Source of the DNA: an uncultured Dehalococcoidaceae bacterium
GTDB taxonomy: Bacteria > Chloroflexota > Dehalococcoidia > Dehalococcoidales > RBG-16-60-22
Assembly: GCA_964589285.1 (NCBI GenBank)
Contig: CAZPSP010000001.1
Coordinates: forward strand, 1 to 52,478
DNA: 52,478 nt
Reading direction: 5' to 3'
Positions 10,145 through 49,620 of the stretch are shown one piece after another. Under the pieces are notes generated by a model that saw only the letters and a program-made list of their open reading frames with translations, was not told the DNA's origin and ran no database searches. The position numbers and the translations under genes were made by a program. How positions within the stretch are numbered: position 1 is the first letter of the stretch; each line of letters starts with the position of its first letter.

Positions 10145-10160
10145 TATCTCATTCCCCCGG

Positions 10161-13948: not shown

Positions 13949-15124
13949 ATGAGCCGTGCATTAAAAAAAAGAATTCTAGGTCTCGTTCCGGCGGTGGTGC
14001 TGATCGGCGCCATTACTTTTTTTTCGGCTGACGTTGCCTTTTCCCTCTATGAACCGGACCGCCCAGCAGCCAGTTCCCCGGAGTGCGGCATGGCTGCCAT
14101 CAGCGGAGAAGTCAGCATCATGCAGAAAGACGGGTTGACCTGGGACACGTATGACGGTACAACCGCACTGGAACCGGGGAGTCGCTTGCGGACCTCACCG
14201 GACTCACGGGCTTTCGTTTCCTTCAGCCCCGGAACCACGACGACGCTCGAACCCGGCACCGATCTTATCATCGATACCATCGCGCCCGGAAACGGCACGC
14301 TCGGCGATATTATCATTCTCAAACAGCGTTCCGGCAAGACGTGGAACCAGGTCGAACCGAGAGAAGTTCCCCAGGACTTCGTACTACGGACAACATCAGC
14401 AGAAGTGAAGGTCAAGGGGACCTCGTTCTCTGCAGAGATCGACAACCAGGGCTCCACCATCGTGGCTTCAGCCAACGGCATGGTGCAGGTCAGCGCGGAA
14501 GGTAAAACAGTAGACCTGGCGGCCGGTTATATGACGCTGGTTGAAGAAGGCAAACCGCCCGCGGAACCGTATCCCATACCCACCGCCTGTAATGAACTGG
14601 CGTTTTCTACCGGAGCTACGGTCAATACGCTGATTACCGCCCCTACCGGTACGAGCACCGGTATCACGGCGGACGGTTCTGCAGTAAACCAGATAACCGG
14701 CTCGCTCCTTTCCCCCGAAGAAGATGGGACCCGGACGGTCTACCTGCGCGAGCCCGAGCCGGGCAATTATACCATCACAATTACCGGCATCCCGGACAGT
14801 TCCTTCGACCTGCACATAGAAGGGTTTATAGACGGAGAGTCCGCCTTTGTAAAGAAACAGGAGATCACCGTGAACCCCACCGGGCAGAAGGTGCTGTATT
14901 TTTCTTACAGCGAACTGGCCGCGGGCATCCAGCCGGTTTCTACATCGGAAGCGTCTGCTGGAGATTCATATACCAAGGCAAAACAGCCCGCGGGCATCGA
15001 TACCGGTGAAGACTACAAAGCCCACTCGGACGGCCAGAGTTCGACCGTGGTCCTGAGATGGGTCGTCATTACTTTCATCATCGTTGTTGCCGGAGGACTC
15101 GTCTATTGGGTACGGCAAAATTGA
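13949..15124 (+). CDS. FecR-domain membrane protein
   Basis: N-terminal TM helix and a FecR-like beta-rich segment (RTSPDSRAFVSFSPGTTTTLEPGT...VKVKGTSFSAEID...VQVSAEGKTVDLAAGY), plus a C-terminal TM anchor. An AAGGTG SD lies upstream. Confidence 0.8.
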   Translation: MSRALKKRILGLVPAVVLIGAITFFSADVAFSLYEPDRPAASSPECGMAAISGEVSIMQKDGLTWDTYDGTTALEPGSRLRTSPDSRAFVSFSPGTTTTLEPGTDLIIDTIAPGNGTLGDIIILKQRSGKTWNQVEPREVPQDFVLRTTSAEVKVKGTSFSAEIDNQGSTIVASANGMVQVSAEGKTVDLAAGYMTLVEEGKPPAEPYPIPTACNELAFSTGATVNTLITAPTGTSTGITADGSAVNQITGSLLSPEEDGTRTVYLREPEPGNYTITITGIPDSSFDLHIEGFIDGESAFVKKQEITVNPTGQKVLYFSYSELAAGIQPVSTSEASAGDSYTKAKQPAGIDTGEDYKAHSDGQSSTVVLRWVVITFIIVVAGGLVYWVRQN

Positions 15125-21253: not shown

Positions 21254-21271
21254 GATTCAATTCCCCCTTAC

Positions 21272-22537
21272 CTATATTGCCCTGGCGACAAGTTCAACGA
21301 TATCGTAGACCTTTAGCGGACTACCGTATTCCTTGGCCGCCGCGGATAATGTCTTTTCGCACCAGGGGCAGGCTGAAACAATGGCCTCGGCGCCCGTGGA
21401 GATAGCTTCATCGATCCTTGCATTTGCCGTCCACGCAGCGAAGTCCGGGTTGGACTCGTTCACGCCGCCGCCGGCGCCGCAGCACCATGCATATTCCTTT
21501 ATCCTGGTCATCTCGGTAAGTTTGACGCCGGGAATGGCCTTGAGGACATCACGCGGCGGTTCGTATACGCCGTTAGTGCCGCGCCGGTACGGTCTCGGCG
21601 GATCGAAGACGAAGCGGTCGCCGGGTATTTTCTTGCCGTCCCAGGGGATCCACGGTTCGCCCAGCCGGCCGAGCCGGCAGGGGTCATGGTAAGTGATGTT
21701 CAGGTTGACCTTGCGGTTCAGCTTGAGCTTGCCTTCCTTGACCAGTTTGTCGATGTACTCGCTGATGTGCAGCACTTCCAGGTCTCCCTTGAGCCCGTAC
21801 TTATCATAGAGTACTTTGAAAGCCTGGTAGCCGTCGGCACAGCCGGTGACCAGCGTCTTCACACCGGCTTTCTTGATCATGTCCATGTTCTTTTTGGCCT
21901 GGGCCAGGAATTCATCCTCGTACCCCATCTGGTAGGCCCGACCGCCGCAGCAGCTTTCGGCGTCACCGAAGATGCCGAAGTTCACGCCGGCTTTCTGGAG
22001 TATCTTGGCCGTCGCTTTGGCCAGTTTCTGCATCTCGGGATCGTAGCTGGAAAGGCAGCCGACGTGGTACAACACGTCCACCTTTTCCTTCGCGGCGTCC
22101 TTGATGCCGAGCCCTTCGGCCCAGGCTCCTCTCTTGCCCTTCGCCGGCACCATGGAGCCGGTCTTCTTCAGCCCGGCAATGACCTTATCCAGCGCCGGGA
22201 CGGTTTTGCCGTCCTTGACCGATTGTATTCTTAATTCGGTGATCGGCTCGATGACAGCCATGTCCATGGCGAAGTTGCATGATACCGCGCAGGCCCCGCA
22301 CAGCTGGCAGTTCTTGATGATATCGAGCAGTTTGTCCGTGTAGTTGATACCGTTCTTCAGCGCGGCGCCGATATAGTTCAGCCTGCCGCCGCCGGAATAT
22401 GCGTGGAAGTTGTATCTGGATACGCTCGGGCAAACATAGGAATACTGTGATCCCTTGATTTTCTGCATGGGGATGAATTTACAGGTCGAACACCGGCAGC
22501 ACATATCAGCATCGCCACGATATTGTTCCAGTCCCAT
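21272..22537 (-). CDS. (Fe-S)-binding protein with two CCG domains (GlcF / HdrD-like)
   Basis: Cys clusters CCRCSTCKF...C and CQLCGACAVSC, and CCG motifs ESCCGGRAY and AWCCGAGGG. An AGGAGGAAG SD lies upstream. Confidence 0.88.
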   Translation of the reverse strand: MGLEQYRGDADMCCRCSTCKFIPMQKIKGSQYSYVCPSVSRYNFHAYSGGGRLNYIGAALKNGINYTDKLLDIIKNCQLCGACAVSCNFAMDMAVIEPITELRIQSVKDGKTVPALDKVIAGLKKTGSMVPAKGKRGAWAEGLGIKDAAKEKVDVLYHVGCLSSYDPEMQKLAKATAKILQKAGVNFGIFGDAESCCGGRAYQMGYEDEFLAQAKKNMDMIKKAGVKTLVTGCADGYQAFKVLYDKYGLKGDLEVLHISEYIDKLVKEGKLKLNRKVNLNITYHDPCRLGRLGEPWIPWDGKKIPGDRFVFDPPRPYRRGTNGVYEPPRDVLKAIPGVKLTEMTRIKEYAWCCGAGGGVNESNPDFAAWTANARIDEAISTGAEAIVSACPWCEKTLSAAAKEYGSPLKVYDIVELVARAI

Positions 22538-22584
22538 CTTCGCTTCCTCCTATTTTTATCGTTTATTTTTATCGCCGGCAAGCA

Positions 22585-24051
22585 CTAGAAGCATACTTTG
22601 CCGGGGTTCATGATTCCATTGGGATCGAAAAGGTCCTTGAGTTTCTGCAGCACGGCCATATTGGCGGTGTCCCGGTTGAATACCGCCCACGTGTTCGGGC
22701 CGTAGGGCCTCGAGAAGAATCCGCCGTTGTTCATCAGGGCCTTGGTCGCTTCCGCGCTCAGGTTTTTGACCTGGGCGGCTTCGGCGGCGTTTTCAGGATC
22801 GTAGAACAGCGAGAATTCACAGTGGTAACCGGTACCCTGGACGATGGGCTGCAGGTATATGGCGATATCGGATGCGGGATAACCGGCCTTATCGGCCAGG
22901 CTGTTCATCAACTCAACCTGAGACCCTATCTTTTCCTGGAGCGTCAGGTAGAATACATCCTCGAAAGCGCCCTTGGAGCGCATCTTCCAGTAGGGTTCCT
23001 CGGCCGGCTGCTGGACCGCTTTCAGTATCTCGTTCGCCGAGATGCTGCCGACAGCTTTCTTCGCCTCGATGCCGAGCCGCTGGTTGATCTTGTTGATATC
23101 CTCGATGTAGGTTGCCACCCGTTCTTCAGGGAAATACTGCAGGCCGGGAAGGTTGTAGAAGAGTATCCACTGCGGCATGGCGTTCTTGTAGTCCTGGTAT
23201 TCTTTCGGCCATTTCTTAGCGAACATGGCGGAGAGAGCGGCATTGTTGAGGATAAAGCATTCATTGGCCATCCTGAGACGGACGAGCCAGGTCGTCAGTT
23301 CAAGGAGAACATCGAGGTTGTCGGAACCGACCACAAAAGGCTCCTGGACCTTGGGGAGAAGTTCACAGCGTATGGAAGCCCAGGTGACGATGCCCATGGT
23401 ACCCTGGGCGCCCTGGACGAGCCGGTGCCAGGAAGCAATGCCGGGGCCGTACGGAGCTTTCTGCATACCGCCCACTTCCCATTGCTCCTGAACATTCCCG
23501 GGGCCGGCCGCCTGTCCGGTGCGGAACAGCTCTCCCGAGCCGAAAACGACCTCGAGGCAGGCAACGGGATCGGAAACATCCCACTGGTACTTGGGCATGA
23601 CAACCGGTTCCCTTTCGAGGAGACTGCCGACCACCGTCTTCGTTTTCCTCGGGAGGAGAGGCATATTGATGATGAGGCCTTCTTTGGCGGCGGCGGTGAT
23701 AAGTTCACCGAAGGTGACCCCCGGCTCTACCATCGCCACGCGGCGGGGAAAATCGACGAAGACGATCTTGTTCATCCCGCTGAGATCGACGATGATGGCG
23801 CCGCCGGTCCCGGGTACCGTGTCCCCGCGAAAATGGGGAGGACCGGAACTCACCGGCACAAGCGGTGTCCTGGTTTCATTGGCGAGTTTGACGAGTTGCT
23901 GGATTTGCTCAGTTTTGCTCGGCTTCACGATACAGGCCGGTCGTACCGCGTTGACAAAACTGATGTCTGAGGAATATTCGTCGAGCGCCGCAGCATCCGT
24001 TACAACGTTGCCCGCCCCGACGATCTTCACCAGCTTTTCCTTTGCTATCAT
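22585..24051 (-). CDS. FAD-binding oxidoreductase (GlcD/D-lactate dehydrogenase-like), paralog of 34224..35690
   Basis: 488 aa with an FAD_binding_4-type N-terminal half and the family-typical C-terminal LFDPNGIMNPGKV. Confidence 0.88.
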   Translation of the reverse strand: MIAKEKLVKIVGAGNVVTDAAALDEYSSDISFVNAVRPACIVKPSKTEQIQQLVKLANETRTPLVPVSSGPPHFRGDTVPGTGGAIIVDLSGMNKIVFVDFPRRVAMVEPGVTFGELITAAAKEGLIINMPLLPRKTKTVVGSLLEREPVVMPKYQWDVSDPVACLEVVFGSGELFRTGQAAGPGNVQEQWEVGGMQKAPYGPGIASWHRLVQGAQGTMGIVTWASIRCELLPKVQEPFVVGSDNLDVLLELTTWLVRLRMANECFILNNAALSAMFAKKWPKEYQDYKNAMPQWILFYNLPGLQYFPEERVATYIEDINKINQRLGIEAKKAVGSISANEILKAVQQPAEEPYWKMRSKGAFEDVFYLTLQEKIGSQVELMNSLADKAGYPASDIAIYLQPIVQGTGYHCEFSLFYDPENAAEAAQVKNLSAEATKALMNNGGFFSRPYGPNTWAVFNRDTANMAVLQKLKDLFDPNGIMNPGKVCF

Positions 24052-32676: not shown

Positions 32677-32714
32677 TAAAAAACCGGGCAGGGTGTCCTG
32701 CCCGGTTGCTTTTT
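32677..32714. terminator. bidirectional rho-independent terminator between convergent genes
   Basis: AAAAAA-CCGGGCAGG-gtgt-CCTGCCCGG-TTGCTTTTT: a 9-bp GC-rich stem (32684-32705) with U-tracts on both strands. Confidence 0.8.
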
Positions 32715-34191
32715 ACCTGCGGGGTCCCGGCTTGGGGATAATGCCGTTGGGATCGAACAGGGCGTTGACCTTCGCCTGCCAGGTCATATAGTTCGATATC
32801 GCGGGATTGACCAGTTCCGGATCCAGCCCCATCGGCACGGCGAACTTTCCTTCCAGCGCACGCATATTGGTCGCCTTACGCCATTCCGCGGCAGCTTCCG
32901 GCGCTCCCTCGGCTGACGTGGGCCGGTAGAATATCTCTGATTTCCCCAGGTGGCCCTGCTCTACGCCCCATCCGAAACAGCCGAAGAAAGCGGCGCCGTC
33001 ATCCATCGCCAGGCCTTTCTCGATGAGTTCGCCCTTGCGCTGCCCGGCTTCCATCAGCCACCGCATCGTGAGGTCCCTCTGGCCCATGATAGCGAAGCCT
33101 CCCCAGCCGGTAGCACCGACACGGAACGTTTCCCTGATGGAAGCGCAAACGCGGATACACTGGCTGAGCAGGATCCCGGCCACCTTCAGGTCTTCCGCTT
33201 CTTTCAGGGACTGGCCGCTGGTCTCTTTCAATATCTGATCAAGAACTTTCAGTTGATAGGCGAACTCGTCCGGCGAGTTGCCGATAATGATGAGCAGGAA
33301 GCCCGGACCCTGGACCTGCCTCCTGAGCCGCTCGAAAGTCGCGATGTCTTCCTCGTTGCTGGTGGATATATTCGCGGAGACCATCGCCATATTGAAGCAC
33401 ATCAGTTCATAGGAGATTTCAGCCTCGCCTATCTTGAGTTCCGCTTCGTACATCTTCTCTGCTGACGGGAAGCTGTAGTAACGGGTCAAGATATTGGGGG
33501 GCATTTCGCTGAGCAGGTATCTCGGCGATACGCCTGTCAGGGGGAATTCCGTCGGGCCCGGCCAGGGATACACCTTCTGGGCGGCCCTGGTCATAATGCC
33601 CGGCGTCAGGCCCGGAGGCACGGTGCCGCTGATCATGCAGCGGAGCGACGGCCCCGGACCGTCCCCGGAGAACCACTCATCGCAAGCCCCCAGGGATCCC
33701 AGCCTGAGCAGTTCACCTTCAGGGGTCACCCATTCCACCGCCAGGTAGTTCCGGTCGTCGCCGCCGGTGGTCTGGTCCATATGCCCGTGGCCTTTGAGCA
33801 TCGCGGAGCCGTTGGAACCGGCCCCCTTGATGCTGCAGTTAAGGCCCCGTTTCATCAGTTCCGCCTGTAGTTCCGCACCGATGACATAAGGTTCCACCAC
33901 GGCGTACATGTTCTTCTCGTTTATCTCAATAATCCTGTTCATCCGCCGCAGGTCGAAGAGTATCGTTCCGGGCGGATACATGCCGCCCCACCCCGACGAT
34001 ACCGCCCCGAACCCCAGCTTGTGCTTGTTGCACAGCTTCATCAAGGCCTGCACCTGCGCGGTGTTCTCCGGCAGGACCACGGCGCCGAACTCGATGCCAT
34101 AGTAGGACGGCATGATCGCCGGATCGTCGCAGATGTACTCCGGCCCGGTAATATCTTCAAACTCTTTATAGATCTCTTTGCTTAATGCCAT
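32713..34191 (-). CDS. FAD-binding oxidoreductase, paralog of 19784..21253
   Basis: 492 aa, colinear with the 489-aa paralog. Confidence 0.85.
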   Translation of the reverse strand: MALSKEIYKEFEDITGPEYICDDPAIMPSYYGIEFGAVVLPENTAQVQALMKLCNKHKLGFGAVSSGWGGMYPPGTILFDLRRMNRIIEINEKNMYAVVEPYVIGAELQAELMKRGLNCSIKGAGSNGSAMLKGHGHMDQTTGGDDRNYLAVEWVTPEGELLRLGSLGACDEWFSGDGPGPSLRCMISGTVPPGLTPGIMTRAAQKVYPWPGPTEFPLTGVSPRYLLSEMPPNILTRYYSFPSAEKMYEAELKIGEAEISYELMCFNMAMVSANISTSNEEDIATFERLRRQVQGPGFLLIIIGNSPDEFAYQLKVLDQILKETSGQSLKEAEDLKVAGILLSQCIRVCASIRETFRVGATGWGGFAIMGQRDLTMRWLMEAGQRKGELIEKGLAMDDGAAFFGCFGWGVEQGHLGKSEIFYRPTSAEGAPEAAAEWRKATNMRALEGKFAVPMGLDPELVNPAISNYMTWQAKVNALFDPNGIIPKPGPRR

Positions 34192-34223
34192 GATTCGTTA
34201 CCTCTCTCTCGGTCCGTTCTCGG

Positions 34224-35690
34224 TCAATAGCAAATCTTACCGGGGTTCATGATGTGGTTCGGGTCGAATACCGTTTTCATCCTGCGCAGCGCGGTCACCG
34301 TCGCGGCGTCCCGGTTCATGATGGCATCCACGTTGGTTCCGTAAGGCCGCGAGAAGAACGCGCCCTTTCCGGAAAGGTCCCTGACCGCCGACGCGGACAG
34401 TTCTTTAATCATCGCCGCTTCCCGGCGGTCCTCCGGGCTGTAGAAGAGGTTGAACTCGCAGTGACAGCTCGTCCCCTGGACCACCGGCTGGATATAAGTG
34501 CTCAGTTCGGAGGCCGGGTAGCCGGCTTCCTCGGTGAGACGGCCCATCGCGTCGATGAGTTCCTCCAGCCTGCCATAGTTAGTAATGAACATGACGTCTT
34601 CACAGGCGCCCTTGTTCCGCAATTTCCAGTGAGGTTCGTCGCAGGGCTGCTGGACGGCCTTGAGCAGTTCATTGGCGGATATACCGCCGAGCGACCTGAC
34701 CGATTCCAGCCCCAGCCGCTGGGTGATCCCCTTGATGTCCTTTATCTGGTACTGTATCCGGTCTTCCGGGAAGTACTCGTAACCGGCCAGGTTATAGAAC
34801 ACCATCCAGGGCGGCAGCGCGCCGACCCTGTTCTTGAATTCTGCCGGCCACTTCTTCGTCATCATGGCCGCCAGAGCGCTTCCATTAACGATGAAGCACT
34901 CGTTGACCAGCCTTCTCCGCACCAGCCATTGGGTCAAGTCAAACAGCCTTTCGAGTTTATCATCGCCTACCAGGAACGGCTCCTCAAGCTGAGGCAGCAA
35001 CTCACAACGCAAAGAAGCCCAGGTGACGATGCCCATCGTTCCCTGGGCGCCCTGGATGATACGGTGCCACCCGACCGTCCCTGGGCCGTACGGCGCTTTC
35101 TGCACCGCTCCCGCGGCCCATTGTTCTTCAATGGTACCCGGTCCGGCCGCCTGCCCCGTCCTGAATTCGTCGCCGGTCCCGAAAACCAGCCCCAGCGTGG
35201 CCAGGGGGTCCGATACGTCCCACTGGTACTTGGGCATGATGACCGGTTCCCGTTCCAGGAGGCTGCCGATGACCGACTTGGACTTCCTGGGCAGCAGCGG
35301 CATGTTGAGGCGAATCCCTTCCTTCGCCGCTGCCGGTATCAGCTCCCCGAAGGTCACACCGGGCTCGACATTGGCCACCCGGTGGTACCGGTCAACCCGG
35401 ATGATCCTTTTCATGCCGCTCAGGTCCACGATGACCGCTCCGCCGGTACCGGGGACAGTATCACCCCGGAAATGAGGAGAGCCGGAACTGACCGGAACTA
35501 ACGGTGTGCCGGTTTCGTTGGCGAGAGCGACGAGCTTCCGGACCTCTTCCGCATTGCGGGGCTTGACCACATACGCCGGTTTAACGCTGTTAACGAAACT
35601 GATATCCTGAGAGTAGGCATCCAGATCAGCCTGTTGAGTGCTGACATTTCCAGACCCTACTATTTTGCCAAGTTTCTCTTTCTGAATCAT
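34224..35690 (-). CDS. FAD-binding oxidoreductase (GlcD-like), paralog of 22585..24051
   Basis: The track ORF 34224..35813 was trimmed to the ATG at 35690, which has a GGAGG SD 5 nt upstream. MIQKEKLGKIVGSGNV aligns with MIAKEKLVKIVGAGNV of the paralog. C-terminal DPNHIMNPGKICY. Confidence 0.88.
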   Translation of the reverse strand: MIQKEKLGKIVGSGNVSTQQADLDAYSQDISFVNSVKPAYVVKPRNAEEVRKLVALANETGTPLVPVSSGSPHFRGDTVPGTGGAVIVDLSGMKRIIRVDRYHRVANVEPGVTFGELIPAAAKEGIRLNMPLLPRKSKSVIGSLLEREPVIMPKYQWDVSDPLATLGLVFGTGDEFRTGQAAGPGTIEEQWAAGAVQKAPYGPGTVGWHRIIQGAQGTMGIVTWASLRCELLPQLEEPFLVGDDKLERLFDLTQWLVRRRLVNECFIVNGSALAAMMTKKWPAEFKNRVGALPPWMVFYNLAGYEYFPEDRIQYQIKDIKGITQRLGLESVRSLGGISANELLKAVQQPCDEPHWKLRNKGACEDVMFITNYGRLEELIDAMGRLTEEAGYPASELSTYIQPVVQGTSCHCEFNLFYSPEDRREAAMIKELSASAVRDLSGKGAFFSRPYGTNVDAIMNRDAATVTALRRMKTVFDPNHIMNPGKICY

Positions 35691-35956
35691 GCCGCCCTCC
35701 TTTGCGGTTAACTTAATACTCGACGAGGATTTTGTCAAGAATTCCGCTATAGTTGGAACAAGGCTGACCGGATGGATGCAAGCTAGGGAAAACAACGAAT
35801 CGATAGTTAACAAAGAAACCGCCGCATTCTCTCGGATACAAACGACCCTGTTTTAATAAATCGATAACAACCTCTAAATCGAACCACATTTTTTCAACCT
35901 ATTTTCCATCACTCCCGCCCGGCTGGAAGCAAAAGAAACCGGATATCTGAATCATC

Positions 35957-39597: not shown

Positions 39598-40113
39598 ATG
39601 ACACAGGAAGCAATACTGGCGGAACTGGTTGAAGACAGGACCATCACCCTCACCGTCAACGGAGACGTTTATGAGGTGAACGTCCAGGCAAACTGGACGC
39701 TGGACTATGTACTCCGGGACAGGCTGGGGATGACCGGGACCAAGGAATTCTGCGGGCAGGGCGCCTGCGGGGCCTGCGCCGTCAATATCGGCGGAAGAGC
39801 AATCCTGTCCTGCATGACGCTGGCCATCGAGTGCGACGGTAAATCCATCGAGACGGTGGAAGGCATAGCCCGGACGAAACACCCGCTCATCGAAGCTTAT
39901 GTCAACCACCACTGCATGCAGTGTGGGTTCTGCACGCCCGGCTTCATCGTCACCGCCAAGTCACTGCTCGACAAGAACCCGGACCCCACCGTGGATGAGA
40001 TCAAAGAAGCCCTTGTCGGCAACCTCTGCCGGTGCGGCACCTACCCCCAGCACATCAAGGCCGTCCAGGACGCATCCCGGACACTCATGGAGGAAAAAAG
40101 CCATGAAAAATGA
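39598..40113 (+). CDS. (2Fe-2S)-binding small subunit of a xanthine dehydrogenase/aldehyde oxidase-family molybdoenzyme (CoxS-like)
   Basis: The track ORF was trimmed to the ATG at 39598, which has an AAGGTGA SD. Cluster motifs: CGQGACGACAV and CMQCGFCTPG...CRCGTY. Confidence 0.9.
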   Translation: MTQEAILAELVEDRTITLTVNGDVYEVNVQANWTLDYVLRDRLGMTGTKEFCGQGACGACAVNIGGRAILSCMTLAIECDGKSIETVEGIARTKHPLIEAYVNHHCMQCGFCTPGFIVTAKSLLDKNPDPTVDEIKEALVGNLCRCGTYPQHIKAVQDASRTLMEEKSHEK

Positions 40114-42562
40114 AGAATATTCCCGGATGCTGGGATCGTTCGATAACCTTAAAGCAGACCCGTATCCGCTCAAGGAATACAATGTCATCGGCAAGCCCGG
40201 CGTACGGCGCATCGACGGTATCGAGAAGGCCACCGGGGCCGCCAAATACACCATCGACGTCAAGCTCCCCGGCATGCTATACGGAAGGTTCCTCACCTCT
40301 CCCTACCCTCATGCTGAAATAGTCAGCATGGACACAGGCCGAGCGGAAAAACTGCCGGGCGTGAGGGCAATTCTGCGTTATGACGACCCGGAACTGCCGG
40401 AAGAAGCCTCGCTGGGCGGTCACGAGCCTTTCCCAACCGCCGTCCTGCCCGGTATCGCCCACTTCCAGGGAGAAGAGGTTGGGGCGTTCGTCGTCGCGGA
40501 GAGCGAAGAAATCGCCGAGGAAGCCCTGAAGCAGATAAGGGTTGAATGGAACATCCGGCCGTTTGTGCTCGACCCCGAGGAAGCCGCCCGGCCCGGAGCG
40601 CCGGTCTCCAATCCGGAGGCCCGTCCCGGCTCCAACACCGACACGGAAAACATCGTCATCGAAAAGCTTGGCGACGTGGAACAAGGGTTCGCCGAAGCTG
40701 ATAAAATCATCGAGTTCGAGTTTAAAAAAGGCCTCGATACCTGGATAGGCCCGGAAGTCCCCTGTGGAGTCTTCCGCTGGAACGGCGACCATGCCGAGGT
40801 CTGGCTGAAGCAGCAGCGACCGCATATCTCCAAGCGCCACATAGCTAGCTGGTACGGCGGCATTCCCATGAACAAGATCGATATTCACATGCTGTACCAG
40901 GGGGCCAGCTTCGGGGGGTGGAGCCAGGCGGCCTGGAACCTCGGCGGAACTTATTGCGCCGGCCTGGTGGCGAAACGTCTGGGACGGCCGGTGAAATGGA
41001 CGTTCAGCCGGCGGGAAGACTTTTTCGGCGGCGAGATGGACGAGGGCGTCTACCGCTACAAAGTGGGTGTCAAGAATGACGGTACCATCACCGCGGTTTA
41101 CGCTCATTCGCTGGTCACCAACCAGGCCCTGCCGGTCTTCGGTATCGTCCGCCACATCATGGAGAACACGAAGATACCCAACCTCTACGGCAAGTCCGAA
41201 GGGGTGCTGATCAACACGGGCCCGAACCTCGCCACCCGCTGCGAGATGAACTCCAACTGCCACAGCATGACGCAGGTGTTCGCCCGCGCCGCCGAGGCGG
41301 TCGGCATGGACCCAACGGAAGTAGCCCTGAAGAACGACGGCGCGGAAGGCCATGACATGGAGTGGCTGAATAAAAGGAAAGCCGAGATGGGCTTCGAGGT
41401 GCGGGACAGCCTGCGGGAATGCATCGAGAAAGGCAAGGCGGCCATCGGCTGGGACGAAAAATGGCACCTTCCCGGTACGAAAAAGCTGCCCAACGGCAAG
41501 ATGCATGGGCTCGGTTTCAACTGGTCTCACGAATGGGACGATTCCGGCGGTACGGCGGAAATCGCCATCTACCTGGAGCGCAACGATGCCACCGCTACCA
41601 TTTTGGGCTGCCGCTGCGATTGCGGCGTCAACGCCGAGACGGCCTACTGCCAGATAGCCGCGGACGAACTCGGCCTGCGCATCGAAGACGTCCGGTACAA
41701 GGGCCAGATAGACGCCGGTTTCTTCGCCATGACGCCGGACACCTCCACCAACATGTCCGTCAACGGAGCGGCGGTCAGGCATTGCGCCCGGCTCCTCAAG
41801 CAGAAGATACTGGCGCTGGCCGTGGAACCGCGGGGAAAAACACAATTGAACGAGTTCCCGCCCGCCTTTCCCGGCAAGAAGCCGGAGGAACTGGACATCA
41901 GGGACAGCGTAATATTTGAGATTGCCGATCCTGCCAACCGCATGACCCTCGCTGAATTCATCGGGCCGAGCGGGGCCATGGGGCCGTTCGACCCGCGGAC
42001 CGGGGAACCGGTCTGGGCCGCGAAGGAAGGCGTCAATTACCCGGTCAAGTTCACGCCGCCCCTCTTCGAGCACGCCTGGCATATCCAGCGCGGCACGTAC
42101 CTGGGCGTGCGGCTCCGTCTCTGCCGCCAGGCCCATTTCATGGAGGTGGAAGTCGATACCGAGACCGGTGAGATCGACGTCAAGCACATCGTCAACGTCA
42201 ACGATGTCGGGAAAGCGATCAGCATCGAAGGCTGCCACGGGCAGCAGTACGGCGGGGCCATCATGGGGCTGGGGCGCGGATTTACGGAAGACGTCATCCA
42301 CGACCCCAACACCGGCGTCATCCTCAATGGCAACCTGCTCAATTACAAGATACCGACGATGATGGACGTCGGGCCGATCGATACCATCCTCGTTGAGACC
42401 GGCATGGGGTACGGGCCCTACGGCGTCGTGGGCATCGGCGAAGATGTTGCCACCATTCTGCCGACGCTTATCGGGGTTGCCGTCCACAACGCTACCGGCA
42501 AATGGGTTGACCGCTACCCGGTCACGCCGGACGTTGTCCTGAGGGCACTGGGAAAAGCCTGA
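40103..42562 (+). CDS. molybdopterin-binding large subunit of a xanthine dehydrogenase-family enzyme (CoxL-like)
   Basis: The true start is taken as the ATG at 40103 (MKNEEYSRM), with a GGAGGA SD 8 nt upstream and an 11-nt overlap with the small-subunit gene. It has an a/b-hammerhead N-terminus (GKPGVRRIDGIEKATGAAKY) and a C-terminal GIGEDV motif. Confidence 0.9.
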   Translation: MKNEEYSRMLGSFDNLKADPYPLKEYNVIGKPGVRRIDGIEKATGAAKYTIDVKLPGMLYGRFLTSPYPHAEIVSMDTGRAEKLPGVRAILRYDDPELPEEASLGGHEPFPTAVLPGIAHFQGEEVGAFVVAESEEIAEEALKQIRVEWNIRPFVLDPEEAARPGAPVSNPEARPGSNTDTENIVIEKLGDVEQGFAEADKIIEFEFKKGLDTWIGPEVPCGVFRWNGDHAEVWLKQQRPHISKRHIASWYGGIPMNKIDIHMLYQGASFGGWSQAAWNLGGTYCAGLVAKRLGRPVKWTFSRREDFFGGEMDEGVYRYKVGVKNDGTITAVYAHSLVTNQALPVFGIVRHIMENTKIPNLYGKSEGVLINTGPNLATRCEMNSNCHSMTQVFARAAEAVGMDPTEVALKNDGAEGHDMEWLNKRKAEMGFEVRDSLRECIEKGKAAIGWDEKWHLPGTKKLPNGKMHGLGFNWSHEWDDSGGTAEIAIYLERNDATATILGCRCDCGVNAETAYCQIAADELGLRIEDVRYKGQIDAGFFAMTPDTSTNMSVNGAAVRHCARLLKQKILALAVEPRGKTQLNEFPPAFPGKKPEELDIRDSVIFEIADPANRMTLAEFIGPSGAMGPFDPRTGEPVWAAKEGVNYPVKFTPPLFEHAWHIQRGTYLGVRLRLCRQAHFMEVEVDTETGEIDVKHIVNVNDVGKAISIEGCHGQQYGGAIMGLGRGFTEDVIHDPNTGVILNGNLLNYKIPTMMDVGPIDTILVETGMGYGPYGVVGIGEDVATILPTLIGVAVHNATGKWVDRYPVTPDVVLRALGKA

Positions 42563-42593: not shown

Positions 42594-44930
42594 ATGAAAA
42601 AGTTTAAATACGCCGGCCCGGATTCACTGGAAAAGGCGGTCTCGATACTTGAAAAGTTCGGACGCAGGGCGAGGATCATCGCCGGCGGCACAGACCTCCT
42701 CGGAGAATTGAAGGACGCAGTACTCCCGAACTACCCGGAGGTCGTCGTTAATCTTAAGACAATCCCCGGACTGGACTACATCAGAGAAGAGAACGGCGTT
42801 CTCCATATCGGCGCCCTCACACGCCTGGAAGACATCACCACGAACGATTTGATACGCGAACGATACCCGCTTCTTTCCGAAGCTTCCCGCCGCACCGCCT
42901 CACCGCACATCCGGGAAATGGGCACCATTGCCGGGAACATCTGCCAGAGCAACCGATGCTGGTATTACTGGGTGGCGGACAACCGCTTCGATTGCCTGAG
43001 AAAGGGCGGTGCTACCTGCTTTGCCGTCAACGGAGACGCCCGCTACCATTCCATCTTCGGGAGCTCCCGCGTCGACCGCACCCCTTGCTCGGTGGAATGC
43101 CCGGCCGGCATCGATATCCCCGACTACATGGCGCGTATCCGGGCCAACGACATTGCCGGGGCGGCCCGGATTCTCATCGAGTCCAATCCCCTGCCCGCCA
43201 TCACCGGCCGGGTCTGTCCGCATTATTGCCAGGCGAAGTGCAACCGCGTTGGATATGACGAGTCCGTCTCCGTGCGGAACGTGGAACGGTTCCTCGGCGA
43301 TTACGTCCTTGAGAATCCGTCAATTTATTCCGAAAAGAAAACGGCTTCAGGTAAAAAGATCGCCGTCATCGGTTCCGGCCCGGCGGGGCTGGCGGCTGCT
43401 TTCTATTTGAACAGACTAGGCCACACCGTCACCGTTTATGAAAAAATGCCGGAAGCCGGCGGCCTCCTGACCTACGGCATCCCGCCTTACCGTCTGCCCA
43501 AGGACGTGGTGAACCGGCAGGTCTCGGTACTGGAGAAGGCAGGCATAAAATTTGAGTTGAATTCGACATTCGATGTCGATAAGCTTACACGCGAGCACGA
43601 TGCCGTATTCCTCGCCTGCGGAACCTGGAAAGACCGCCATTCCGGCATACCCGGCGAAGAACACCTGCTGTCCGGTCTTGACTTCCTGAAAAATGTCAAT
43701 ACCGGCAACCGCGCCGTCCCCGGTCAGAAGGTTGCGGTCATCGGCGGCGGGAACGTTGCCGTGGATGTCGCGCGGACACTGCTGCGGCTCGGGGCGGAAC
43801 CGGTCATGCTCTACCGGCGTACACTGGAGGAGATGCCCGCCCTCAGGGAAGAGGTAGAAAAGCTGGTCGAGGAGAACATCGAGGTACGTTTCCTGACCCT
43901 GCCCGTTTCGGCCGCGAAGAAGGACGGCAAGGTCGCCCTGACCTGCACGAAGATGCAGCTCGGCGCGCCGGACGAATCGGGCAGGCCGCGTCCCGAACCA
44001 GTCCCCGGTTCGGAGTTTACGCTGGAGTTCGACGCCGTCATGGAAGCCCTCGGCGAAGCAGCGGACCTTTCGATCGTTCCCGGTGAATACCTCGATGCAG
44101 GCAGCTTGAAAGTAGCTGACAACGGATCCATCGGCGGTAACATCTTTGCCGGCGGCGACTTCGTTACCGGACCTTCCACCGTGGTACAGTCTATCGCCTC
44201 CGGTCGTGAGGCCGCTAACAGCATTGACCGTTTCCTCGGCGGCAAGACGGAACCGCCCGAACCGAAATCCGCCTGGCGTGAACCCGATACTTTCGACAGC
44301 GCCTCTCTCGCCAAGACAACCGCCGCCGAAGCGCCGGAACTGCCGGCCGGACAACGAATCGCAAACCTCGATGTTGAGGACGCGGGCGGCCTGTTGCCGG
44401 ATGCCGTCGCCGCGGAAGCCAATCGCTGCTTCAACTGCGGCTGCGTGGCGGTCAATCCTTCCGACCTCGCTCCCGCCCTCATCGTACTTGAGGCACAGAT
44501 AAAGACCACGAAGAGGACCATTCAGGCGACGGAGTTTTTCACCGTTAACGGGGAAAAGACGACCGTCCTCGACGATGATGAAATCGTCATCGAGATCATC
44601 GTCCCGAAACCGGGACCCGGCGTTAAATGCAAATTCCTGAAATCCGCCATCCGCAAGTCCATCGATTTCCCGCTGGTCAACTGCGCCGCGGCGATAGAAA
44701 CGCAAAACGGTACCATCAAAAAAGCCCGGATATGCCTGAACTCGGTGTACACTATACCCTATCCGGTGAAAAAGGCGGAAGCTTACCTGGAAGGCAAAAG
44801 CATCGAAGAGCCGACCGCGGAGACCGCCGCTTACCTCATCACGGACGATGCCGTCCCGCTGCTCAACAACCGGTACAAGATACAGATTGCGCGGGCGCTG
44901 GTCAAGCGGGTCATCCTGGCCTGCGGTTGA
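42594..44930 (+). CDS. FAD-binding subunit (CoxM-like) with a nested GltD-like Fe-S/NAD(P)H oxidoreductase insertion
   Basis: 778 aa. Residues 1-155 are FAD_binding_5-like (IIAGGTDLL, TIAGNICQ). Residues 160-610 are GltD-like (CPAGIDIP...GRVCPHYCQAKC, KIAVIGSGPAGLAAAF, VAVIGGGNVAVD, AGGD). Residues 611-778 resume the FAD-binding fold (CVAVNPSDLAPALIVLEA) and the CO-dehydrogenase flavoprotein C-terminal-like domain. Confidence 0.85.
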   Translation: MKKFKYAGPDSLEKAVSILEKFGRRARIIAGGTDLLGELKDAVLPNYPEVVVNLKTIPGLDYIREENGVLHIGALTRLEDITTNDLIRERYPLLSEASRRTASPHIREMGTIAGNICQSNRCWYYWVADNRFDCLRKGGATCFAVNGDARYHSIFGSSRVDRTPCSVECPAGIDIPDYMARIRANDIAGAARILIESNPLPAITGRVCPHYCQAKCNRVGYDESVSVRNVERFLGDYVLENPSIYSEKKTASGKKIAVIGSGPAGLAAAFYLNRLGHTVTVYEKMPEAGGLLTYGIPPYRLPKDVVNRQVSVLEKAGIKFELNSTFDVDKLTREHDAVFLACGTWKDRHSGIPGEEHLLSGLDFLKNVNTGNRAVPGQKVAVIGGGNVAVDVARTLLRLGAEPVMLYRRTLEEMPALREEVEKLVEENIEVRFLTLPVSAAKKDGKVALTCTKMQLGAPDESGRPRPEPVPGSEFTLEFDAVMEALGEAADLSIVPGEYLDAGSLKVADNGSIGGNIFAGGDFVTGPSTVVQSIASGREAANSIDRFLGGKTEPPEPKSAWREPDTFDSASLAKTTAAEAPELPAGQRIANLDVEDAGGLLPDAVAAEANRCFNCGCVAVNPSDLAPALIVLEAQIKTTKRTIQATEFFTVNGEKTTVLDDDEIVIEIIVPKPGPGVKCKFLKSAIRKSIDFPLVNCAAAIETQNGTIKKARICLNSVYTIPYPVKKAEAYLEGKSIEEPTAETAAYLITDDAVPLLNNRYKIQIARALVKRVILACG

Positions 44931-45105: not shown

Positions 45106-46800
45106 ATGAACAATAAACCAAGTAAAAGCGCCGCATCATTCCAGGGACTGGAAAACGCCGATATCAGGAACGTCGTGAAGTCCATGGGCTACACGGATGA
45201 CGATCTCTCGTCAGGCCGTCCGGTCATCGGCATTGCCAACTCATGGAACACCCTGATACCCGGCCATTTCAACTTCCGGGAGATCAGCGAACAGGTGAAG
45301 AAAGGTATCCACCGCGCCGGGGGTACGGTCTTCGAGTTCGGCACCATCGGCCTGTGCGACGCCATCTGCAAGGAGAACTTCAACTACGTTCTCCCCTCAC
45401 GTGAGATAATTTGCGATTCAATCGAGGCCATGGCCGGGGCGAACCCTCTGGACGGCCTCGTCCTGCTGGCCTCCTGCGACAAGATCGTGCCGGGCATGCT
45501 CATGGCCGCCGCCCGCTTGAATGTACCCGCGATTCTCGTCAACAGCGGTCCCATGCTGGGCGGACCGCCATTTTCCGGGCGCAAAGCCGATTCCACCTCC
45601 GTCTCCGAGGCCCTGGGCATGTACAAGGCCGGCAACCTGTCCCTGGATGAATACCGTGACATAGAAGACCTGTCCTGTCCCACGTGCGGCTCCTGCTCCT
45701 TCATGGGCACCGCCAACACCATGTGCTGCCTTGCCGAGGCCATGGGCATGACGCTGACGGACAGCGCATCGATACCCGTCGTCTATGCGGAACGGCTCCG
45801 GATAGCCGAGAGGGCGGGAGAGGCTATCTGTCATCTCGTGAAAAACGGCATTACCGCCAAGCAGATCATCGATAAACGGTCCCTGGAAAATGCCGTCCGC
45901 GTTTGCCTGGCCATCGGCGGTTCCACCAACGCCGTTCTCCATCTGACCGCTATCGCCTACGAGGCCGAGGCGGACATCGATATCCTGGACACCTTCGACA
46001 AGTTCAGCAAGACCACACCGACGATTGCTAGAGTTTATCCCGCCGGCAGCGCAGACATGGAAGACCTGTGGAAAGCCGGCGGTATTCCGCGGGTTATCTC
46101 TAACCTCCGAAGCTTGCTGGACATGGACGTTATGACCTGCACCGGCCGGACGATGCGGGAGAACATCGATACCTTCCATTACCGGTTCCCGGAGAACCCG
46201 GAAGTCATTCGTACCGTCGATGACCCCTTCGCCATGTCGGGCGGGCTTGCCGTGATACGGGGCAACCTGGCGCCTGATACCGGTATCAGCAAGCCGGCCG
46301 CCATCGATCCCGAGGTCAGGAAGTTCACCGGGACGGCCGTGGTGTTCGATTCCGAGGAAGACGCCAACCGGGCCATCCTCGACGGCAAGGTCAAAGCCGG
46401 CAACGTAGTCGTTATCCGCTACGAAGGCCCCAAGGGCGGGCCGGGCATGGTGGAAATGTACCGCGCCCTGAAATACCTGCACGGCCTCGGCCTGCACAAG
46501 TCCACCGCCGTGATTACGGACGGGCGTTTCTCCGGCACGAACAACGGCTGCTTCGTGGGGCACATCTCGCCGGAAGCGTTCGAAGGCGGGCCGCTGGCCG
46601 TAGTCGAGAACGGCGATACCATCACGATAGACGTACTGGAAAGCTCCATCCATCTGCACGTTCCGGACGAAGAACTGACCCAACGCCTGAAAGCCTGGCG
46701 GCAGCCGCCGCTCAAGGTCAAGAAAGGTTATCTTGCCCTCTATTCCCGGCTGGCAAGCTCTGCCGACAAGGGCGCGATCATCCGTTACCCGGATGCATAA
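45106..46800 (+). CDS. IlvD/Edd family dehydratase (dihydroxy-acid or sugar-acid dehydratase)
   Basis: Motifs SCDKIVPGM, CPTCGSCSFMGTANTM, GGSTNAVLH and TDGRFSG. 564 aa. An AGAGG SD lies upstream. Confidence 0.9.
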   Translation: MNNKPSKSAASFQGLENADIRNVVKSMGYTDDDLSSGRPVIGIANSWNTLIPGHFNFREISEQVKKGIHRAGGTVFEFGTIGLCDAICKENFNYVLPSREIICDSIEAMAGANPLDGLVLLASCDKIVPGMLMAAARLNVPAILVNSGPMLGGPPFSGRKADSTSVSEALGMYKAGNLSLDEYRDIEDLSCPTCGSCSFMGTANTMCCLAEAMGMTLTDSASIPVVYAERLRIAERAGEAICHLVKNGITAKQIIDKRSLENAVRVCLAIGGSTNAVLHLTAIAYEAEADIDILDTFDKFSKTTPTIARVYPAGSADMEDLWKAGGIPRVISNLRSLLDMDVMTCTGRTMRENIDTFHYRFPENPEVIRTVDDPFAMSGGLAVIRGNLAPDTGISKPAAIDPEVRKFTGTAVVFDSEEDANRAILDGKVKAGNVVVIRYEGPKGGPGMVEMYRALKYLHGLGLHKSTAVITDGRFSGTNNGCFVGHISPEAFEGGPLAVVENGDTITIDVLESSIHLHVPDEELTQRLKAWRQPPLKVKKGYLALYSRLASSADKGAIIRYPDA

Positions 46801-46864: not shown

Positions 46865-47797
46865 CTATTCCCAGTCCGGCGGGCCTACCTGCTTCTGCTG
46901 GTCGTAGATATCGTTGTAGATGACCTTCCCGAAGTTCATATACGTGTCCCAGCGAGGGTGCCGGGGTTCGTCCGGGCAGGCGCGCATAATAGCGTCGTGG
47001 CGGGCGGCATAACCGGCCTTCCATTCCGGGTGGGTCATGATATAAAGATCATTGTTGCGGATGCCCCGCAGGACGCGCTCGCCGGTCTCGAGCGGATCCA
47101 TGGCGATGTCCTTCACCGGGGGGCGTTTCCGCTGCCCGCCGTCCTTCGGTGGTGGCGGCGGCCAGACTTCACCCTCGTTGCGCAGGTGTTCCGGCCGGTT
47201 CTCGAATGTCGACCTTCCCAGGTCCGTCGCGGTCAGCCCCGGGACCAGGATGGAAACGCCGATGTTCTTTGGTTTGAGTTCACCGGCAATGCTCTCCATG
47301 AGACCGCACACGGCGTACTTGGTGGTGCAGTAGATAGCCATATTGTCCGTACCCATCAGACCGCAGGTGGAAGAGGTGCTGACGATGTGCCCGCCTTCTC
47401 CATGTCTGATGATACGGGGCAGGATGGTCATGACGCCGTTGATGACGCCCCAGAGATTAACGTTGATGCCGTACTCCCAGTCCTTATAGTTGATCTTGTC
47501 GATCGGGCCGCCGCAGCCGATGCCCGCATTGTTGACGAGCACATGTATCTTACCGTAGACCTTTTCGGCCTCGTCGGCGGCGCGTACGTAGGCATCGCGG
47601 TCGGTCACGTCCAGATTGATGGGGTACACGTCCCCGCCGTTCTCCCTGAACCAGTCCATCGCTTCATCCAGCGCGTATTGCCGCATATCGACGATGACCA
47701 CTTTCATCTTGTGTTTCGCGAACACTTTGGCGATACCAAGACCGATGCCGCTGGCGCCGCCGGTGATGAACGCGACTTTTCCTTCGAACTTTTCCAT
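46865..47797 (-). CDS. SDR family oxidoreductase (310 aa, extended C-terminus)
   Basis: The track ORF was trimmed to the ATG at 47797, which has an AGGAG SD. It lies 17 nt after the upstream stop. Motifs: VAFITGGASGIGLG and NNAG, and the catalytic YCTTK. Confidence 0.88.
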   Translation of the reverse strand: MEKFEGKVAFITGGASGIGLGIAKVFAKHKMKVVIVDMRQYALDEAMDWFRENGGDVYPINLDVTDRDAYVRAADEAEKVYGKIHVLVNNAGIGCGGPIDKINYKDWEYGINVNLWGVINGVMTILPRIIRHGEGGHIVSTSSTCGLMGTDNMAIYCTTKYAVCGLMESIAGELKPKNIGVSILVPGLTATDLGRSTFENRPEHLRNEGEVWPPPPPKDGGQRKRPPVKDIAMDPLETGERVLRGIRNNDLYIMTHPEWKAGYAARHDAIMRACPDEPRHPRWDTYMNFGKVIYNDIYDQQKQVGPPDWE

Positions 47798-47814: not shown

Positions 47815-49509
47815 CTAATGCGAGATACCGCACGAGCCGTCAGCGCAGGCGATTCCCCCCGGCATACGCAGCGGCCGTTCATCCTTGCGGATGCCGCCTT
47901 TCGGTATCCATGGGTCGACAAGGACCGTCTGGAAATAGGTAAAATCGGTGGTTATCCATAGCGGATTGGTTTCCCCGCCAACGACCACGAAATTGACCAT
48001 GTCCGGGTTCTTGACCGGGAAGTCGGTCCTCTCCATAAGCCATTCGCTCAGTTTGCGCGGGTCATCGAAGCCTTCTTCGCGCTTGAGGCTCTTGGCGACG
48101 AGGGGGTCGATGACGAAGGTATACGAGCCGCCGAACGGTCCCGACGGTTTCATCTTTTCCAGCATCTGCTGAGACAGCCCGAAGCCGAGGTTCTGCATGT
48201 TCCAGCCCCTGAACAGACTCACCGTGCTCTGCTCCTTCTGGTATCCCTTCCGCACGTGGAACGGCTCCCAGGGGCTGTTCTCCTCATTTTCCGCGCAGCA
48301 CATGTTGTTGTAGTTGAGGTTATGTCCGGTACTGGCCGTGAACGTCGCTCCGAGCCTGGCGTCCCCCAGGTTGATACTCATCAGCGTCCATGCCCGCCCG
48401 ATGACTGAATTGGCGTAGTTGAACGGACTCAATGCCGCCCGGCCGCAATTCATGCCGCATTCGTTCCGAACCGGTCCGTTGACCACCATCATGCTGGCGA
48501 AGGAAGTGGTCGAGCTGGGCATGGACGGTCTCCCGGAAGCACCCAGCGCCAGGATGACCGGGAAGTGCTCCGGTCTCGCCCCGGCCATAACGGCGATGAC
48601 TGCTACCTTTTCCACGTTGTACTTGAGCCGTTCCTCGTGGGTGGTGACCGACATCATCCCGACATACTCGTCCGGCGCCCGTCCGGTACCGGTCAGCATC
48701 TCTGCTACACGTTCCTCGGTCGGCAGGACGATGGGCAGGCCGTCCGTCCAGCCGTTCTCCAGGAAGAGCCGGTGTAGTTCTTCCTCGGTGGCCGGTTCGA
48801 GCAGTCTCGGCCGCTGCGGCCTCTTGATCACTTTAGGATGGAGTTCCGCCTCGGTCAGCGGGCTGGTAAGAGCGTGGAAGATCTCGTCGAGCAGAGGCGC
48901 CCCGGAGACCGGGTCTTTGCCGGTGATGTATTCCCTTACGACCTCTCGTGGAATATAGCCCACCGGGTAAGGCGGGAAGGTCCAGCGCAGGTTCATGCCG
49001 TGGCTGCGGCCGTCACGCTGAACGTAATCAGCGAACATGGCGGTCACGATGGGGGCCGTGGGTATGCCATAGTCATGCTCAAGCGTCCGGGCAAATTCGG
49101 CGACACTCGCCGAACAGCCGTCTCAGCCACCCACACCAAGAATGGCGGCGTCACCGTTAGCCTTGATCTCTTTCCAGAGTTCCGGCTCGTCCGTGAACAT
49201 GCTCGTTTTCTTATGGCGCAGCACCGTTTTGATCTCCGGCCGGTTCCGGTTCAGCCAGTCCTGGAGTTCCTCCATAAACTCCTTGCTGCCGGCAAATCCC
49301 GTATTAACGAGGTACACGGTCTTGCCTTCCAGCGTATCCAAACGCGAGGCCATCTTCAGCGATTCCAGTGTCTCCTCGAACTGTCTCGGCTGGTATTCGG
49401 GGTCGTGGATCGCCCGGGGCGATGAATCGGGATCGAGACGGCGCCCGAAGATACCGCTGGGCTGTCCTACCGGGTCCAGGACCGTCAGTTTGGCACCTTT
49501 TCTTGGCAT
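47815..49509 (-). CDS. predicted selenoprotein, 564 codons with in-frame UGA (Sec129) at 49125-49123; U-x-x-C motif; function unknown
   Basis: Track ORFs 49123..49509 and 47815..49047 are in the same frame. The 75 nt between them are stop-free (DGCSASVAEFARTLEHDYGIPTAPI). The only good SD (AGGAG) is at the upstream ATG at 49509, and there is none before the downstream ORF. A SECIS-like hairpin follows the UGA. Confidence 0.7.
49090..49119 (-). promoter_or_regulatory. SECIS-like recoding stem-loop 3 nt downstream of the in-frame UGA
   Basis: mRNA sense: GGC-UG-UUCGGCG-AGUGU-CGCCGAA-UUU-GCC. This gives a 7-bp upper stem (8 bp with A-U closure), a 3-bp lower stem and G/U residues in the apical loop. 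The loop starts 16 nt after the UGA. Confidence 0.6.
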
Positions 49510-49620
49510 TTTACTCTCCTGACAAATTTATATCGTTTATGATAGTTCCTCTTTTGCTTTCGCAAAATACTAATCCAACCGCAGGTAAATTTCAAGTCCT
49601 ACCCGTCTCAACGGGCAGTT

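Follow-up and report, generated by a model that had tools for sequence, protein, structure and literature searches.

Reading frame and expression signals of the gene

The window analyzed here is the whole stretch of 52,478 nucleotides (nt) of contig CAZPSP010000001.1 (positions 1 to 52,478, GenBank assembly GCA_964589285.1) from an uncultured Dehalococcoidaceae bacterium. On its minus strand lie two adjacent open reading frames (ORFs) that very probably form one selenoprotein gene, with an internal UGA encoding selenocysteine (Sec). The first ORF (49123..49509) encodes 128 amino acids (aa), has the C-terminal end DAAILGVGG and stops at a TGA at 49125-49123. The second (47815..49047) encodes 410 aa from a GTG at 49047, which is in the same frame, 78 nt beyond the first base of the TGA; no stop occurs in the 25 codons that separate the UGA from this GTG, DGCSASVAEFARTLEHDYGIPTAPI. 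Read as a complete gene, 47815..49509 (minus strand) comprises 564 sense codons in one frame, which closes with TAG at 47817-47815. The TGA of codon 129 (49123..49125), in the translated context GVGG-U-DGC-SAS, is its sole in-frame TGA, and across the junction the fused protein reads AAILGVGG-U-DGCSASVAEFAR.

A Shine-Dalgarno sequence, AGGAG, was read at 49516..49520 (minus strand), 6 nt 5′ of the ATG at 49509-49507, and inspection of the sequence upstream of the GTG at 49047 and of the ATG at 49038 revealed no purine-rich Shine-Dalgarno motif. Further upstream of the gene, a sigma-70-like promoter (TTGAAA-17-TAGTAT, 49567..49595, minus strand) was found as a consensus match of 9/12 positions, in a scan that returned 4 sites in the region when 1.3 were expected. 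The earlier note on this DNA had given the lengths and ends of both ORFs, their 78-nt offset, the shared frame and the open 25 codons, and all of these were confirmed by translation and by the ORF list; its statements on the ribosome-binding sites were confirmed by direct reading.

Gene callers cut the gene into pieces of 128 and ~407 aa, here and in thousands of public contigs, and NCBI has named one 128-aa fragment a ‘UGSC family (seleno)protein’. These annotations imply two separate genes, namely a small UGSC-like protein ending at the UGA and a ~407-410-aa protein initiated at GTG 49047 or ATG 49038. Such a layout is very improbable, given that the single Pfam PF24696 domain, at residues 40-193, crosses codon 129 and extends 64 residues beyond the UGA, that the 25 codons from UGA to GTG are conserved as protein in all homologs, and that the downstream starts have no Shine-Dalgarno sequence. 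Intact homologs carrying Cys or other residues at codon 129, which occur at every divergence level, and the covarying hairpin 3′ of the UGA described below also speak against it.

Conservation of the UGA codon

The search with the fused protein retrieved 5638 homologs, and nearly all of the best 120 were 393-425 aa long and started just past the UGA. One homolog from a Desulfobacteraceae metagenome-assembled genome (MAG), P0003, has 599 aa, covers 99% of the query and reads through the position with Cys (GVAGCDGCSAS). With the 128-aa N-terminal piece as query, 777 relatives were obtained; PF24696 is present in each of the best 120, and with a single exception these are cut at 125-129 aa. In addition, Cys occupies the Sec position in nine intact distant relatives.

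A scan of one genome per GTDB species yielded at least 569 relatives, from which 78 loci were kept, and 73 of these cover codon 129. In 70 of these 73, TGA is the aligned codon, and the other three have Leu. The 70 TGA-bearing loci come from Dehalococcoidales, Acidobacteriota, Desulfobacterota, Bacillota, Actinomycetota, Spirochaetes and Chloroflexia, that is, from six or more phyla, and share 41-75% protein identity. The split was also reproduced in the independent Logan assembly SRR10178537.

Since the window sequence is a single MAG-type contig, the TGA might be a sequencing or assembly error, or a strain-specific nonsense mutation that turned the gene into a pseudogene. The probability of this is negligible, as TGA stands at this codon in independent assemblies that come from different studies and phyla, including the Logan assembly, and both halves are under strong protein-level conservation. 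Because TGA is conserved in 70 of 73 loci across lineages, an error, a strain-specific mutation and the two-gene layout are all in effect ruled out.

UGA reassignments exist in some uncultured bacterial lineages, and a genome-wide reassignment (e.g., to Trp or Gly) would remove the need for selenocysteine. In the window, however, TGA is the stop codon of 9 of the 20 large homology-supported ORFs and none of these has an internal in-frame TGA, which argues that the codon is not reassigned throughout the genome. Together with the Cys, never Trp or Gly, that close read-through relatives carry at this position and with the presence of a SECIS-type hairpin, this makes reassignment vanishingly unlikely. 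Among the TGAs of the window that have at least 60 open codons on either side, only the frame of codon 129 is supported by homology. With TGA in 70 of 73 loci and one Pfam domain running across the codon, the arrangement goes well beyond chance. A second selenoprotein gene was sought within the window as internal support for Sec decoding, and no credible candidate was found.

A SECIS-type hairpin downstream of the UGA

Analysis of the sequence 3′ of the UGA revealed a candidate bacterial selenocysteine insertion sequence (bSECIS), a hairpin of the form GUUCGGCGA-GUG-UCGCCGAAU at 49095..49115 (minus strand), with a 9-bp stem, a GUG apical loop and a folding energy of -12.2 kcal/mol. The hairpin begins 7 nt 3′ of the UGA, and the spacing from UGA to loop is exactly 16 nt. 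Published bSECIS criteria describe an apical loop of 3-9 nt on a stem of 4-16 bp, a G followed by G or U at the loop start, a spacing of 16-37 nt and a minimum free energy of -7.5 kcal/mol or lower (PMC13188914); the hairpin at 49115-49095 agrees with all four. In a control over the 1746 TGA triplets of the window, 48 passed the same test and 11 equaled this hairpin, so that taken alone it is suggestive, about 0.6% of the window TGAs doing equally well.

Covariation was compared with a null, for which the 3′ partner was slid by 1-3 columns and 500 shuffles were made. In the UDGC/UE[GA]C class, represented by 40 sequences, pairing was seen in 93.6% of stem cells, compared to 28-46% when slid; both sides had changed in five of the nine pairs, and none of the 500 shuffles reached the observed values. 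The changes include synonymous third-position compensation in L004 and L011 (UCG/GCC to UCA/GCU) and a paired non-synonymous swap in L008 (GCG/GCC to CCG/GGC, Ala+Ala to Pro+Gly). A second set of 31 sequences, of the UPGC/USxC class and including two UDGC outliers, had 89.2% of cells paired and 38 double-change cells, again matched by 0/500 shuffles. The hairpins of the two classes stand in registers 2 nt apart: in the UDGC/UE[GA]C class, nt 20-22 counted from the U of UGA form the loop, G-U-N, and the UPGC/USxC class has its stem 2 nt further downstream, with a loop of GGUC or AGUU at nt 21-24. Because the proteins of the classes align in register and the hairpins do not, the RNA structure is kept up in its own right.

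The hairpin was not present in the three Leu-type homologs, and the Cys homolog P0003, which is close to the Sec forms, keeps 8/9 stem pairs and has lost the otherwise invariant loop U. One point against a SECIS role is that the hairpin overlaps conserved coding sequence, which inflates its apparent conservation; the compensatory changes, which include synonymous third-position and paired non-synonymous swaps, argue against coding overlap as the explanation. The comparative data make a strong case for a SECIS element at this site.

These results bear out the proposal of the earlier note that the UGA encodes Sec in a U-x-x-C pair, which is supported by TGA across phyla, by Cys in P0003 and by the covarying hairpin. 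Of the checks it had suggested, two gave support: in the homolog search across the junction, relatives aligned over residues 1-564 with TGA or Cys at 129, and the SECIS scan downstream of the UGA gave the hairpin at 49115-49095. Of the outcomes that the note had named as fatal to its proposal, neither two separate genes nor an erroneous or strain-specific TGA was found, the codons between the ORFs being conserved as protein in the homologs and TGA standing at the aligned codon.

UGSC domain and C-terminal domain

The N-terminal part of the predicted protein contains a UGSC-family domain (PF24696; 48931..49392, minus strand), which spans the Sec codon and scored 76.3 bits against a gathering cutoff of 25, covering model positions 4-157 of 172. 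Its Sec-x-x-Cys pair, U129-D-G-C132, lies at the motif position of PF24696, with the letters UDGC in place of UGSC. Against the equivalog NF041046 of NCBIfam (cutoff 125, model of 147 aa), the score was only 54.7 bits, and ten other intact two-domain relatives gave 32-102 bits. The protein also departs from the single-domain length of ~147 aa, with 564 aa in total and ~370 aa beyond the domain. Judged by these profiles, it is a member of the UGSC family at the domain level and not a classical short member; since it fell below the equivalog definition, it was filed as a long two-domain UGSC variant. The likeness to the UGSC family that the earlier note had suggested therefore stands for the domain (76.3 bits to PF24696), and does not stand for classical membership, in view of the UDGC motif, the NF041046 score and the fourfold length. 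Searches of the PDB with the sequence of the UGSC region gave nothing meaningful.

The remaining ~370 aa constitute a C-terminal domain (47818..48930, minus strand) with invariant motifs such as GWTDGLPI..PTEERV and MAGxRPEH. Profile searches found no match to a Pfam or NCBIfam model and no PDB sequence match. The domain was modeled by AlphaFold2 with a predicted local distance difference test (pLDDT) of 73.3 and a predicted template modeling (TM) score of 0.74, and a Foldseek search of the PDB with this model revealed no neighbor (best E = 0.13, TM about 0.2). Fold matches to barbiturase/cyanuric acid hydrolase and to RNase E were at E ≥ 0.13 and TM about 0.1-0.2 and were discarded as noise, not read as homology. 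By these searches, the C-terminal domain appears to match nothing described.

An exhaustive profile search placed the C-terminal domain in 4650 clusters at 50% identity, 717 of them at E ≤ 1e-30. Intact members of 530-670 aa start with the UGSC domain and carry at the Sec position either Cys (CSTC, CPGC, CGSC) or a non-redox residue (M, T, S, G, H, L). Because intact members share this layout, the two-domain architecture is old and widespread, with the Sec forms as one large part of it. The Sec forms fall into four U-x-x-C classes, UDGC, UE[GA]C, UPGC and US[ST]C. Close to the window protein, Cys forms are very rare: when P0003 was itself used as query, no other protein among the best 120 hits was intact, and those nearest to it, at 88% identity, are cut in two at the UGA.

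Individual members showed further peculiarities. A hydrophobic helix at the N-terminus sets P0003, the only intact Cys form, apart from the window protein. The P0003 gene (8001-9800 within L080 1-17800) lies among giant HdrA-like iron-sulfur flavoproteins, FlpD/MvhD, CCG-domain and HGD-D proteins, and is directly followed by a gene for a DUF1573 protein (9804-10547), listed in reviews as a selenoprotein family with a UGC motif. Three loci (L070, L071, and L076) are intact and have Leu in place of Sec (GQLDTC or GQLDTN); both the hairpin and the C-x4-C tail are missing from them. They often stand beside a second intact copy and are natural ‘redox-dead’ forms usable as comparators.

Conserved cysteines, the adjoining SDR gene and a proposed mechanism

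Conservation of cysteines was counted over 83 full-length family members, which include 64 Sec forms and 10 non-redox forms. C132 is invariant in the Sec forms (64/64) and completes the U129-D-G-C132 motif (49114..49125, minus strand), which in the low-confidence P0003 model is predicted to lie where a beta strand ends and a helix starts. C404, the first of the pair Cys404-Cys405 (NYNNMCCAENE; 48295..48300, minus strand), is present in 60/64 Sec forms. The C-terminal tail C555-A-D-G-S-C560 (47830..47847, minus strand) carries a C-x4-C pair that occurs in ~50/64 Sec forms and in 0/10 non-redox forms, and is missing from most distant Cys forms; its pLDDT of 46-53 in the AlphaFold2 model is as expected of a flexible segment, and it is a candidate mobile redox shuttle. 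The full-length model of P0003 (pLDDT 51, poor) places the Cys/Sec on a strand-helix loop of a beta-alpha-beta-alpha-beta-alpha-beta-alpha domain.

Directly downstream, a short-chain dehydrogenase/reductase (SDR) gene (46865..47797, minus strand) starts with an ATG at 47797-47795, 17 nt past the stop of the selenoprotein gene, and has its own AAGGAG. The product matches Pfam adh_short with 173 bits and is a generic SDR by NCBIfam. No terminator was found between the two genes, which are probably co-transcribed. Of 71 Sec-type loci, 27 have an SDR gene adjoining on the same strand; it follows the selenoprotein gene in the UDGC class (13 loci) and precedes it in the UPGC class (9 loci). That the two genes are paired in either order speaks for a functional connection.

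From the cysteine pattern we infer that the protein is a selenol/thiol redox enzyme, and the same pattern, together with the low confidence of the tail, leads us to propose a redox center served by a mobile dithiol tail. By analogy with what is established for Sec decoding in bacteria, SelB with Sec-tRNA(Sec) would bind the hairpin at 49115-49095 while the ribosome sits at the UGA, so that selenocysteine would be inserted and translation would run on to the TAG at 47817-47815. In the folded protein, U129 and C132, at the strand-helix junction of the N-terminal alpha/beta domain, would cycle between selenol/thiol and selenenylsulfide, and the C-terminal domain, with its conserved Cys404 and many invariant polar residues, would bind the substrate. 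The flexible C555-x4-C560 tail would probably relay reducing equivalents to or from the U-x-x-C center, and the selenoprotein would probably be co-expressed with the SDR encoded directly downstream.

Several observations weigh against this interpretation. The SDR gene is adjacent in only ~38% of loci, and the P0003 model (pLDDT 51) is too poor for the geometry of U129 relative to C404 and the tail. The selenenylsulfide cycling, the shuttle tail and the partnership with the SDR are drawn wholly from conservation and gene order, and the selenoprotein itself is known here at the DNA level. Nor was any Sec-insertion gene or tRNA-Sec detected on the 52-kb contig by ARAGORN, Rfam and Pfam searches of the large ORFs: ARAGORN and Rfam found no tRNA, no SECIS family and no other Rfam family in the window, and no SelA, SelB or SelD Pfam domain was present, just as the earlier note had stated that selA, selB, selC and selD are missing from it. 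ARAGORN likewise found no tRNA-Sec nearby in 60 related loci. Counts of 46-49 predicted selenoprotein genes have been reported for Dehalococcoidia MAGs (PMC13326102), which makes Sec decoding plausible in this lineage.

The protein may also be a genuine selenoprotein in which Sec does not serve a redox relay, acting instead as a nucleophile in covalent catalysis, in the manner of PrdB or GrdB, or as a ligand of a metal or cofactor bound to the C-terminal domain. D-proline reductase PrdB and glycine reductase GrdB carry out reductive C-N or C-X cleavage, and the Sec region gave recurrent, non-significant local matches to both (E = 0.043 and E = 0.064, respectively). The rarity of Cys forms is in line with such a role, being typical where the special reactivity of the selenol is needed. 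PrdB, moreover, also has a U-x-x-C motif (PMC2398784, Table 2). The matches are nevertheless far under the model cutoffs, at 13.2 bits (E = 0.043) against 300 for TIGR04483 (PrdB) and at 12.1 bits, in the relative P0433 only, against 602 for TIGR01917 (GrdB); no PrdA/GrdE-type pyruvoyl partner is encoded nearby, and the C-x4-C tail co-occurs with Sec, which fits a relay. A catalytic or ligand role of Sec is considered a serious alternative, albeit a rather unlikely one.

Other genes of the window and paralogous loci

Apart from the SDR gene, the neighbors of the selenoprotein gene in the window include divergent genes for the alpha and beta subunits of a pyruvate dehydrogenase (PDH)-type E1, IlvD, a xanthine dehydrogenase (XDH)-family molybdoenzyme with an unusual flavin adenine dinucleotide (FAD)/GltD-like subunit, and more oxidoreductases. 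As a set they belong to redox and central metabolism and are non-diagnostic, the SDR, PDH E1, IlvD and XDH-family genes giving no clue to the substrate. An ORF at 45106-46800 (plus strand), also of 564 aa, was considered as a paralog and rejected, as it encodes the dihydroxy-acid dehydratase IlvD above NCBIfam cutoffs.

The unusual subunit is encoded at 42594-44930 (plus strand) as a 778-aa fusion of an XdhB-type FAD_binding_5 (residues 3-120) and a CO_deh_flav_C domain (682-775) with a GltD/YgfK-like middle part (~162-640; Fer4_20 and Pyr_redox_2), and it adjoins the XDH-family molybdopterin subunit at 39899-42562. Two groups of genes at 19784-24051 and 32713-35813 (minus strand) together hold four FAD_binding_4 (GlcD-like) genes and one CCG-domain (GlcF/HdrB-like) gene, which suggests several glycolate- or lactate-oxidase-type complexes on one contig. 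For three large ORFs of 775, 494 and 391 aa (3884-6211 and 8660-10144 on the minus strand and 13949-15124 on the plus strand), Pfam gave no match at E ≤ 1e-8; the 775- and 494-aa ORFs are surrounded by genes for type IV pili or a type II secretion system (T2SSE at 7460-8638 and 11967-13673, T2SSF at 10740-11954).

Among the related loci, 20 of 75 have the C-terminal domain gene in two to four copies, most of which are interrupted by UGA. Clusters or tandem arrays of paralogs were largest in L015, L056, and L068, with four C-domain ORFs each, followed by L040, L042, and L028 with three each. Different U-x-x-C classes may also occur in one MAG, as in STA_40, which has both L032 (UDGC) and L062 (UPGC).

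Novelty and significance

The UGSC family has been known since 2005-2008, so that its name is not new, and Sec recoding itself is textbook knowledge. For the long two-domain form, the literature searched held no description beyond a remark of 2008 on a ‘UGSC/Unknown_1’ fusion, in which a UGSC domain is joined to a conserved domain without assigned function that has a conserved Cys (PMC2398784). The extent of the family and its near-obligate reliance on Sec appear to be undescribed, as do the motif classes, the link of the C-x4-C tail to Sec, the partnership with the SDR and the clustering of paralogs.

The gene and thousands of public homologs are recorded as two unrelated hypothetical proteins, and joining the two parts puts right the number of selenoproteins counted for Dehalococcoidia, Acidobacteriota and Desulfobacterota. 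Few selenoproteins in the environment are as abundant as those of the UGSC family, for which no function is known; the long form offers a handle on them in its large, conserved, putatively catalytic domain, its SDR neighbor and its candidate shuttle tail, and natural Sec, Cys and non-redox variants are available for comparison. The widespread, uncharacterized attached domain and its context make an old selenoprotein family more approachable. For the evolution of SECIS elements, the family is a clean natural data set, with compensatory upkeep of the hairpin and a register shift of 2 nt between subfamilies.

As a tentative extension, the C-terminal domain may represent an undescribed enzyme family that depends near-obligately on a UGSC-type Sec in cis and has a dedicated SDR partner, the paralog classes UDGC, UE[GA]C, UPGC and US[ST]C being substrate-diversified reductases of anaerobic Dehalococcoidia, Acidobacteriota and Desulfobacterota. 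We hold this to be possible rather than likely. If true, the splitting of the gene in nearly all annotations would have kept an entire class of enzymes from view.

Comparison with known systems

UGSC-containing proteins, with a UxxC motif and a function that is not known, are among the most abundant selenoprotein families in ocean metagenomes (PMC2398784, PMC1976440, PMC9312934, PMC13188914). In the Global Ocean Sampling (GOS) data, 255 Sec forms were counted versus 21 Cys forms, and a ‘likely Trx-like fold’ was proposed (PMC2398784). The window protein resembles this family, described by Zhang, Gladyshev et al. from the Sargasso Sea and GOS, in its domain, in the place of the U-x-x-C pair and in the strong excess of Sec over Cys. 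It differs in the motif, which is UDGC (UE[GA]C, UPGC or US[ST]C in its relatives), and in its length of 564 aa as compared to ~147 aa, owing to the extra domain of ~370 aa. The long form is found mainly in anaerobic lineages of sediment and soil (Dehalococcoidales, Acidobacteriota, Desulfobacterota), whereas classical UGSC proteins occur in surface-ocean bacteria. The ‘UGSC/Unknown_1’ fusion likewise combines UGSC with a conserved domain, which may be the present C-terminal domain (PMC2398784, Figure S1A); in the part of that study's sequence dataset that precedes the UGSC section, no motif of the present domain occurred. In regard to the proposed thioredoxin fold, the P0003 model has the order b-a-b-a-b-[Cys]-a-b-a (b, strand; a, helix), with Cys just before a helix, at an overall pLDDT of 51.

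As in PrdB and GrdB, Sec would stand in a U-x-x-C motif after a beta strand of an alpha/beta domain, and weak local matches are found around it; unlike those systems, the window neighborhood has no PrdA, GrdE, GrdA or GrdC, and the domain architecture is another one. Mammalian thioredoxin reductase has a flexible C-terminal redox tail with the motif GCUG. The window protein is similar to enzymes of this type in having a redox pair on a low-confidence, probably flexible C-terminal tail, but its Sec is N-terminal and not in the tail, and it has no flavin or NAD(P)H domain, so that the likeness would be one of functional analogy only.

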